NCBI RefSeq assembly: GCF_030384885.1
Contig: NZ_CP128613.1
Origin: Escherichia coli
Lineage (GTDB): Bacteria; Pseudomonadota; Gammaproteobacteria; Enterobacterales; Enterobacteriaceae
Length of the DNA stretch: 64,000 nt
Direction: 5' to 3' (one strand)
This document shows, in pieces, positions 14,923 through 17,476 of the stretch (its first letter is position 1; each line of letters opens with the position of its first letter). Below the pieces are notes generated by a model. It was given only the letters and a program-made list of their open reading frames with translations, was not told the DNA's origin and did not search any database. Both the position numbers and the translations under genes were made by a program.

Positions 14923-16251
14923 ATGGCAATGTTCGGTTTTCCTCACTGGCAGTTAAAATCGACCTCTACAGAGAGCGGCGTGGTCGCGCCGAATGAACGA
15001 TTGCCGTTTGCTCAGACGGCAATAATGGGCGTTCAACACGCGGTGGCGATGTTTGGCGCGACGGTGTTAATGCCGATTCTGATGGGGCTGGATCCCAACC
15101 TTTCCATTTTAATGTCGGGGATCGGCACGTTACTGTTTTTCTTTATTACCGGCGGGCGCGTCCCCAGTTATCTCGGTTCCAGCGCGGCTTTTGTCGGCGT
15201 GGTGATCGCCGCGACGGGCTTTAATGGTCAGGGAATTAATCCGAATATCAGCATCGCGCTGGGCGGGATTATCGCCTGTGGGCTGGTTTATACCGTCATT
15301 GGCCTGGTGGTGATGAAAATCGGTACGCGCTGGATTGAACGACTAATGCCGCCGGTTGTGACGGGTGCGGTGGTGATGGCGATTGGCCTGAACTTAGCGC
15401 CTATCGCAGTGAAAAGTGTATCGGCTTCGGCCTTTGATAGTTGGATGGCGGTAATGACGGTGCTGTGTATTGGGCTGGTGGCGGTGTTTACCCGTGGCAT
15501 GATCCAGCGATTATTGATTCTCGTAGGATTAATTGTCGCCTGTCTGCTGTATGGCGTGATGACCAACGTTTTAGGGCTGGGAAAAGCCGTCGATTTTACT
15601 CTCGTCAGCCATGCTGCCTGGTTCGGTCTGCCACATTTTTCCACTCCTGCTTTTAATGGTCAGGCAATGATGCTGATTGCGCCCGTGGCGGTTATTCTGG
15701 TGGCGGAAAACTTAGGTCATCTGAAGGCGGTAGCCGGGATGACCGGACGCAATATGGACCCGTATATGGGGCGGGCATTCGTAGGCGATGGGCTGGCAAC
15801 AATGCTTTCGGGTTCTGTCGGCGGTAGCGGCGTGACCACCTATGCTGAAAATATCGGTGTGATGGCTGTGACAAAAGTCTATTCGACGCTGGTGTTTGTT
15901 GCTGCCGCCGTCATCGCCATGCTGTTGGGCTTTTCGCCGAAATTTGGCGCACTAATCCATACCATTCCGGCACCGGTGATTGGTGGTGCGTCAATTGTTG
16001 TGTTCGGGTTAATTGCCGTCGCAGGCGCGCGGATCTGGGTACAAAATCGTGTGGATTTAAGTCAGAACGGTAATTTGATTATGGTCGCAGTAACCTTAGT
16101 GCTGGGTGATGGTGATTTTGCTCTCACGCTGGGCGGTTTTACGTTGGGAGGGATCGGTACAGCAACCTTTGGCGCGATTTTACTCAATGCGTTGTTGAGC
16201 AGAAGGTTGGTTGACGTTCCTCCGCCAGAAGTTGTTCATCAGGAACCATAA
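14923..16251 (+). CDS. rutG: Pyrimidine permease RutG (NCS2 family)
   Basis: 442 aa from MAMFGFPHWQ; AGGAGA RBS; multi-pass membrane protein. Confidence 0.9.
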   Translation: MAMFGFPHWQLKSTSTESGVVAPNERLPFAQTAIMGVQHAVAMFGATVLMPILMGLDPNLSILMSGIGTLLFFFITGGRVPSYLGSSAAFVGVVIAATGFNGQGINPNISIALGGIIACGLVYTVIGLVVMKIGTRWIERLMPPVVTGAVVMAIGLNLAPIAVKSVSASAFDSWMAVMTVLCIGLVAVFTRGMIQRLLILVGLIVACLLYGVMTNVLGLGKAVDFTLVSHAAWFGLPHFSTPAFNGQAMMLIAPVAVILVAENLGHLKAVAGMTGRNMDPYMGRAFVGDGLATMLSGSVGGSGVTTYAENIGVMAVTKVYSTLVFVAAAVIAMLLGFSPKFGALIHTIPAPVIGGASIVVFGLIAVAGARIWVQNRVDLSQNGNLIMVAVTLVLGDGDFALTLGGFTLGGIGTATFGAILLNALLSRRLVDVPPPEVVHQEP

Positions 16252-16258
16252 ACAGAAA

Positions 16259-16290
16259 ACCGCCGGGGTAACCGGCGGTGATGGCTTTTT
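16259..16290 (+). terminator. Candidate intrinsic terminator after rutG
   Basis: 8 bp GC stem (accgccgg/ccggcggt) followed by a T-run. Confidence 0.4.
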
Positions 16291-16333
16291 GACGAGCTAC
16301 AGACAAAAATGCATTCGTCATTGATTAGCCCGG

Positions 16334-16507
16334 CTAGTTGTCGCTTTTGCCGTGACTGCTCTTGCCACCTTTTTTACCTGCTTCAGATGCGCGCTGCGGG
16401 TCATTTTTGAAATTACCCCCGCTGTGCTGTCCACCTTTTTTACCTGCTTCTGATGCTCTTTCGCGGTCTTCTGCAAAATTGCCGGAACCGCCTCGATGGT
16501 TTGCCAT
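16334..16507 (-). CDS. ymdF: Stress-induced KGG-repeat small protein YmdF
   Basis: 57 aa from MANHRGGSGNF; internal repeats ASEAGKKGG. Confidence 0.85.
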   Translation of the reverse strand: MANHRGGSGNFAEDRERASEAGKKGGQHSGGNFKNDPQRASEAGKKGGKSSHGKSDN

Positions 16508-16861
16508 TACTGACCTCCGTCTGGGTATAGACATCATATTGCATAGAATTAACGCGGCGTATGGCGGCTGCCATATTTTCGCTACGTGGGACTAAGCTTA
16601 GTGAACTGACGCGGGCAGACCCGCGTTTGGTAATATCCTGCAACAGCTTCTTAGCGAGAATAGATATCATCTCCAATAATTATCTATAAGCCGCTCTTAT
16701 GATTAAAAAAACGCGATGAGATAAAAATGTGTCATTTTGCGACAAAATTGCGTGCTTGTGAAAGTTGTTATAAATCAAATAAGTGGTTGTGAAATTTGCA
16801 CTCTGAAAAGGACGTCTTATCTTTAAATAAGTGGTAGCGAATCGCTACGGAATAGAGATAA

Positions 16862-17476
<615 letters not shown>

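Follow-up and report, generated by a model that had tools for sequence, protein, structure and literature searches.

The short reading frame between rutG and wrbA in the 64,000-nucleotide stretch of Escherichia coli DNA analysed here (the window) raises the question of which of the overlapping frames is the gene, to which family its product belongs and what such a small repetitive protein does in the cell. The coding sequence occupies positions 16334-16507 on the minus strand and consists of 57 codons followed by a TAG stop, yielding the 57-residue product MANHRGGSGNFAEDRERASEAGKKGGQHSGGNFKNDPQRASEAGKKGGKSSHGKSDN. Bases 16200-16900 of the window are 100% identical to E. coli strain 2013C-4282, and in a strain that is 100% identical over this locus RefSeq annotates the coding sequence of ymdF (WP_001273658.1) at exactly equivalent coordinates, under the product name "general stress protein" or, in some records, "con-10 family general stress protein". 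The same gene is present at a syntenic position in E. coli K-12 (b4518), where it encodes a protein without any difference from the one described here. The annotated gene order is rutG-ymdF-wrbA-yccJ, with ymdF divergent from wrbA and convergent with rutG, and the locus (bases 16200-16900) was found in 5417 of 5426 complete E. coli genomes. It is very likely that the locus is ymdF and that its product belongs to the KGG/con-10/GsiB family. The gene is a monocistronic member of the E. coli core genome, and its expression signals, namely a ribosome-binding site, a conserved promoter block and an intrinsic terminator, are its own. The gene, its family, the repeat, the regulation and the stress and biofilm phenotypes have all been published and were already known. 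As a discovery the locus is of little weight, and the window offers no new handle on the molecular role of the KGG repeat; the analysis mainly serves annotation, since it fixes the start codon at 16507, dismisses an antisense reading frame and a 67-residue form with an N-terminal extension, reassigns a hairpin to ymdF and indicates that a Walker-A-like match in the protein is very probably accidental.

The reading frame was evaluated by aligning the window with the orthologous loci of Salmonella, Klebsiella, Citrobacter, Enterobacter and Pluralibacter, giving a comparison of six enterobacterial genera. Over the first 52 codons of ymdF the numbers of variable columns at codon positions 1, 2 and 3 are 5, 4 and 33, respectively, and this alignment indicates that YmdF is under purifying selection. 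A Shine-Dalgarno sequence, GGAGG, is read from the sequence at 16514-16518 (minus strand), 6 nt before the ATG at 16507, and the hexamer GGAGGT ahead of this ATG is invariant in the six genera. The program-made list of open reading frames contained a longer, 67-residue form starting at the ATG at 16537. This candidate was rejected: the upstream ATGs at 16537 and 16534 are in-frame here, but in four of the five other genera they are followed by in-frame stops or lie out of frame. Judged from the comparison, the 57-residue form starting at ATG 16507 represents the correct start of ymdF.

The sequence-only reading had described a protein of 57 residues with two near-identical segments, and the translation indeed contains RASEAGKKGGQHSGGNF (residues 17-33) and RASEAGKKGGKSSHG (residues 39-53), with the repeat extending beyond the two segments that were quoted. 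YmdF matches itself best when shifted by 22 residues, with 17 identical positions, a value reached in none of 20,000 composition-preserving shuffles of the protein (mean best 8.5, maximum 16). At the DNA level this corresponds to a 62-nt direct repeat at 16356-16417 and 16422-16483, the copies of which are 73% identical and spaced by 66 nt or 22 codons. On the minus strand, the first unit (16422-16483) covers about residues 9-29 (GNFAEDRERASEAGKKGG...) and the second unit (16356-16417) about residues 31-51 (GNFKNDPQRASEAGKKGG...). Between the copies, 20, 23 and 15 of 35 nucleotides are identical at codon positions 1, 2 and 3, respectively. The third codon positions are thus the most diverged, which argues for an old duplication that has been maintained by selection on the protein. 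The layout of YmdF can be written as MANH-RGG, S-GNFAEDRERASEAGK-KGG, QHSGGNFKNDPQRASEAGK-KGG and KSSHGKSDN, that is, two full units with a partial one at each end. A full unit consists of 22 residues (GNF-x6-RASEAG-KKGG), and [KR]GG motifs occur at residues 5, 24 and 46 with spacings of 19 and 22 residues.

The same sequence-only reading had placed the product in the KGG family and had named the lack of a KGG match as what would refute this. A Pfam scan instead supports the placement with a match to PF10685 (KGG) of 67 bits against a cut-off of 20.4 (E=1.6e-18), made up of two stretches, the best of which aligns residues 32-52 with positions 1-22 of the 22-position profile. PF10685 is the "stress-induced bacterial acidophilic repeat motif". 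No NCBIfam model scored over threshold for YmdF, a result that carries no weight against the Pfam assignment. An exhaustive HMMER search (E up to 0.001) yielded 639 family representatives at 50% identity. Among the best 150 of these representatives, the 147 that were newly retrieved contain 1-5 [KR]GG motifs per protein, and the dominant spacings are those also found in YmdF, with 114 cases of 22 residues and 65 cases of 19 residues. When 40 diverse members are aligned, the YmdF positions G9, N10, F11, A18, A21, G22, K24, G25 and G26 are near-invariant, and conservation is just as high at the matching positions of the second repeat, whereas the tails vary freely. Within the 64-kb window no other KGG gene was found.

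A competing frame of 77 residues with a TTG start runs antisense to ymdF at 16362-16595 on the plus strand. That this frame is the real or an additional gene, or that the 66-nt repeat is a non-coding DNA repeat, is so improbable that it can practically be set aside. The antisense frame exceeds ymdF in length and has no stop in E. coli or, inside the overlap with the coding sequence, in Citrobacter, but it contains internal stops in Salmonella, Klebsiella, Enterobacter and Pluralibacter, that is, in four of the five other genera, it has no Pfam or NCBIfam match and no Shine-Dalgarno sequence was noted ahead of its TTG. Since both frames share the third codon position, the codon-position statistic alone is unable to dismiss the antisense frame. 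The divergence of the repeat copies at the third codon positions of ymdF speaks against a non-coding repeat, and the ymdF product itself has been observed by mass spectrometry in Salmonella (PMC5437024). A stop can arise in the antisense frame only where a Tyr, His or Gln codon follows the right base, and the frame is open mainly because of the amino-acid composition of YmdF: when the protein is recoded at random with synonymous codons, this frame stays open over at least 49 codons in 47% of the trials, and some antisense frame is open in 75%. The frame had earlier been called an artefact of the repeat. Its status as an artefact rather than a gene holds, but its cause is mainly composition, and the internal PPFLPASDA repeat of the antisense product merely mirrors the KGG repeat.

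Downstream of ymdF, a hairpin at 16279-16259 on the minus strand has an 8-bp stem with seven GC pairs and is directly followed by the T-run TTTTCTGTTT (16258-16249), so that the whole element spans 16249-16279. This arrangement of a GC-rich hairpin with a U-run directly behind it on the ymdF strand is that of a predicted intrinsic terminator. The terminator scan gave hits on both strands, and in each strand the minimum-free-energy fold includes the hairpin. The element also resembles a terminator for rutG on the plus strand, although there the T-run begins 6 nt past the stem and the match is weaker than on the ymdF strand. According to the sequence-only reading, ymdF sits directly after the terminator of the rut operon. 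This label is acceptable but incomplete: the hairpin does lie 8 nt past the rutG stop codon, but it is better regarded as the terminator of ymdF itself. Across the six genera, agp-yccJ-wrbA divergent to ymdF forms the constant part of the neighbourhood, while the gene downstream of ymdF is rutG in E. coli only, an EamA-family transporter gene in Klebsiella, Citrobacter, Enterobacter and Pluralibacter, and a TetR-family gene in Salmonella. Nevertheless, CCGCCGG...CCGGCGGTTTT is invariant in the six genera whatever gene lies downstream, and all of them carry CCGCCGG...CCGGCGG with a T-run behind it on the ymdF strand. The retention of hairpin and T-run in the five genera in which rutG is not adjacent indicates that the hairpin is the gene's own terminator. 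In the window strain it probably serves both convergent transcripts, ymdF and rutG. Over 15800-17200, an Rfam search with E up to 1 returned only a sub-threshold match to sroD that covers the terminator and the 3' UTR (22 bits against a gathering score of 50, E=0.15), which was treated as a chance likeness between hairpins.

Upstream of ymdF, the block ATGCAATATGATGTCTA, located 20-40 nt before the ATG, is kept in five of the six genera and contains the candidate -10 hexamer TATGAT (16533-16538, minus strand), the only TAnnnT hexamer within 60 nt upstream of the ATG. The ATGCAATATGATG block, GGAGGT and the terminator hairpin with its T-run are conserved across the six genera while the downstream neighbour changes. 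No recognisable -35 element was found upstream of the candidate -10 hexamer. Promoters of sigma-S commonly lack a recognisable -35 element. We infer that TATGAT is the -10 element of the ymdF promoter, with conservation as the sole basis for assigning this putative promoter to sigma-S. Another candidate, TGTCTATACC just upstream of the Shine-Dalgarno sequence, was considered as a sigma-S-type -10 element (CTATAC) and rejected, as the other genera read CTAATC there whereas TATGAT is conserved.

Several studies describe the regulation of ymdF and its relatives. In Salmonella, YciG, YmdF and STM14_1829 are sigma-S regulated and the ymdF mRNA is lowered in a delta-rpoS strain, while the KGG motif was called functionally uncharacterised (PMC7161692). 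YmdF was also listed among the sigma-S-dependent small ORFs of Salmonella of which the protein was detected (PMC5437024). Furthermore, the three Salmonella KGG genes are acid-induced, and double and triple mutants grow slightly worse at pH 4.5; single mutants have no acid phenotype and that of the triple mutant is modest (bioRxiv 10.64898/2026.04.09.717482). YmdF appears on a list of stationary-phase proteins (PMC6904343), and ymdF is up-regulated as persisters appear, with over-expression having opposite effects on persisters with different antibiotics (bioRxiv 10.1101/310961). The gene is also induced in biofilms, and the biofilm of an E. coli delta-ymdF strain does not go beyond a patchy monolayer; its sensitivity to peroxide is about 100-fold higher, and that to tobramycin and ciprofloxacin is raised as well (PMC9262955).

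The closest relatives of YmdF share its general features and differ in context. The Salmonella orthologue STM14_1275 has 55 residues and departs from E. coli YmdF at G22S, K23R and in the C-terminal tail. YciG, the paralogue encoded in the yciGFE operon of E. coli and Salmonella, and STM14_1829/SEN1538 are, like YmdF, members of the KGG family with two to three repeats and are likewise sigma-S dependent, functionally redundant and reportedly disordered. YciG-like representatives align with YmdF over the whole length. However, yciG is the first gene of an operon and its product ends in QQSGGNKSGKS, whereas ymdF is monocistronic and its product ends in KSSHGKSDN. PA2146 of Pseudomonas aeruginosa is a small, strongly biofilm-induced KGG protein from another genus and another genomic context, yet PA2146 and E. 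coli ymdF complement each other and are interchangeable in both directions for biofilm architecture and tolerance (PMC9262955).

More distant parallels are GsiB of Bacillus subtilis and con-10 of Neurospora, which are members of PF10685 with tandem hydrophilic KGG repeats of 20-22 residues and with induction under general stress or starvation, and, as a functional class, the hydrophilins and LEA proteins. GsiB has more repeats than YmdF and is controlled by sigma-B. LEA proteins are unrelated to YmdF in sequence, and the likeness to hydrophilins is functional and compositional rather than a matter of homology.

The composition of YmdF is extreme, with 21% glycine, a GRAVY of -1.71 (mean Kyte-Doolittle) and no aliphatic residue besides the initiator Met, and the protein is basic (11 K/R against 7 D/E). 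The hydrophilin criteria of Garay-Arroyo et al. 2000 reportedly ask for glycine above 6% and a hydrophilicity index above 1, and with these values for glycine and hydropathy YmdF falls within the class. Its paralogue YciG has been cited as a hydrophilin (PMC5437024). An AlphaFold2 model of YmdF built on a 40-sequence alignment has a pLDDT of 59.7, a pTM of 0.26 and no residue at or above 90, and contains just two weak helices, at residues 15-24 and 37-46, which correspond to the RASEAGKK part of each repeat. A sequence search of the PDB returned no homologue of YmdF. The predicted model is consistent with disorder, and a study of the Salmonella orthologues YciG, YmdF and STM14_1829 reportedly found them to lack structure in solution (Oguri et al. 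2019, cited in PMC7161692).

We know of no KGG protein with a demonstrated biochemical activity. The most likely mechanism, to which we would assign about an even chance of being correct, is that YmdF is a hydrophilin or LEA-like protectant that acts redundantly with YciG. Under acidification, dehydration or another stress of the cytoplasm, an abundant, disordered and highly hydrated YmdF would protect proteins and membranes. Helix formation at the conserved RASEAGKK segment of each repeat would be conditional, and the paralogue YciG would share the task. Several observations count against such a shield. The single Salmonella mutants are without acid phenotype and even the triple mutant shows a modest one, the motility phenotypes differ by strain, and over-expression affects persisters in opposite ways. 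In addition, the near-invariant residues of the motif are conserved beyond the needs of a purely compositional shield, which hints at specific binding. A separate reading has YmdF bind nucleotides through a Walker A motif (P-loop), as the Pfam family description suggests for YciG. Residues 48-55 of YmdF, GKSSHGKS (16343-16366), literally match GxxxxGK[ST], contrary to a published comparison in which YmdF and PA2146 were described as being without a Walker-like motif (PMC9262955). However, the pattern turns up in 3.4% of composition-preserving shuffles of YmdF and is missing from the orthologues of Salmonella, Klebsiella, Citrobacter, Enterobacter and Pluralibacter. With two residues left between the pattern and the C-terminus, there cannot be the helix that comes after a true P-loop, and the low-confidence model contains no strand-loop-helix, nor does the sequence match any solved P-loop protein. 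On these grounds the Walker-A-like match is very probably accidental and nucleotide binding by this route very improbable.

The main rival reading takes YmdF as a specific regulatory or adaptor protein in which each KGG repeat would be a short linear motif recognised by a defined partner, such as a component that controls flagellar synthesis or the biofilm and drug-tolerance pathway, so that the phenotypes would arise via signalling and not via bulk protection. This is possible, though on balance unlikely. It would account for the near-invariance of the motif residues, next to freely varying tails, in the 40 diverse members aligned. E. coli ymdF rescues the biofilm architecture and tobramycin tolerance of the P. 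aeruginosa delta-PA2146 and delta-sagS strains, which puts the KGG family at a point downstream of SagS, a sensor (PMC9262955). Effects of the Salmonella paralogues on flagellum-dependent motility have been reported (PMC7161692; bioRxiv 10.64898/2026.04.09.717482), and one study treats the wrbA/ymdF region as a target of CsgD, a regulator of biofilms (PMC10002515). Yet no binding partner of YmdF is known, the motility effects were not reproduced in S. Enteritidis (PMC7161692), and cross-complementation between Pseudomonas, Klebsiella and E. coli, together with the redundancy of the paralogues, fits a generic activity at least equally well. The presence of 1 to 5 repeats per family member also suggests the dosage of a generic unit. 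A more speculative variant, which we consider rather doubtful, is that the GNF...RA.EAG.KGG unit might be a conditionally folding short linear motif that docks on one conserved target, such as the ribosome, RNA polymerase or a membrane component, with the number of repeats setting the valency. If true, this would explain why the KGG proteins of E. coli, Klebsiella and Pseudomonas can replace one another in biofilm drug tolerance. The shielding role as a hydrophilin or LEA-like protectant, shared with YciG, remains the mechanism that we favour.

Several further observations concern the DNA on both sides of ymdF. Among complete E. coli assemblies, 7 of 5422 matches to the rutG-ymdF-wrbA segment sit on plasmid-labelled records. 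The junction between rutG and ymdF (16249-16300 here) is polymorphic within the species. The window has the short, one-hairpin form, and 3631 of 5426 genomes cover at least 80% of the junction query. The long form, seen in about 1730 genomes including a K-12-derived strain, carries a second copy of the hairpin and a pair of REP sequences (BIME), adding 175 bp, and retains the T-run on the ymdF strand solely at the rutG-proximal copy of the hairpin. The 3' end of ymdF may differ between strains with the short and the long junction. In strain R32_14_1F a duplicated 351-nt fragment of the rutG 3' end lies between the two hairpin copies.

The region between wrbA and ymdF contains blocks that are common to the six genera, namely the perfect palindrome ACTAAGCTTAGT as well as TGTTGCAGGATATTAC, TTGTCGCAAAATGACACATTTTT and TTTGATTTATAACAA, at 16591-16602, 16630-16645, 16723-16745 and 16765-16779. 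These blocks are probably binding sites of regulators. The CsgD box AAAAGNGNNNAAAWW is found in this region only when two mismatches are allowed (16709-16723), which is uninformative. About 100 nt upstream of the ymdF start, a GC-rich inverted repeat, ACGCGGGTCTGCCCGCGT on the minus strand (16609-16628), is present in E. coli and is not conserved in the other genera aligned. On the wrbA side, a hairpin GTAGCGAATCGCTAC (16834-16848, plus strand) follows 5-6 nt after the conserved TATCTTTAAA, which is likely the -10 region of wrbA; the two together lie within 16818-16848. No Rfam family corresponds to this hairpin, which the terminator scan flagged on the minus strand. Its pairing is kept by compensatory changes across the six genera (GTAGCG/CGCTAC, CCAGC/GCTGG and GCAGC/GCTGC). 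The hairpin would lie right at the 5' end of the wrbA mRNA, which it may stabilise.
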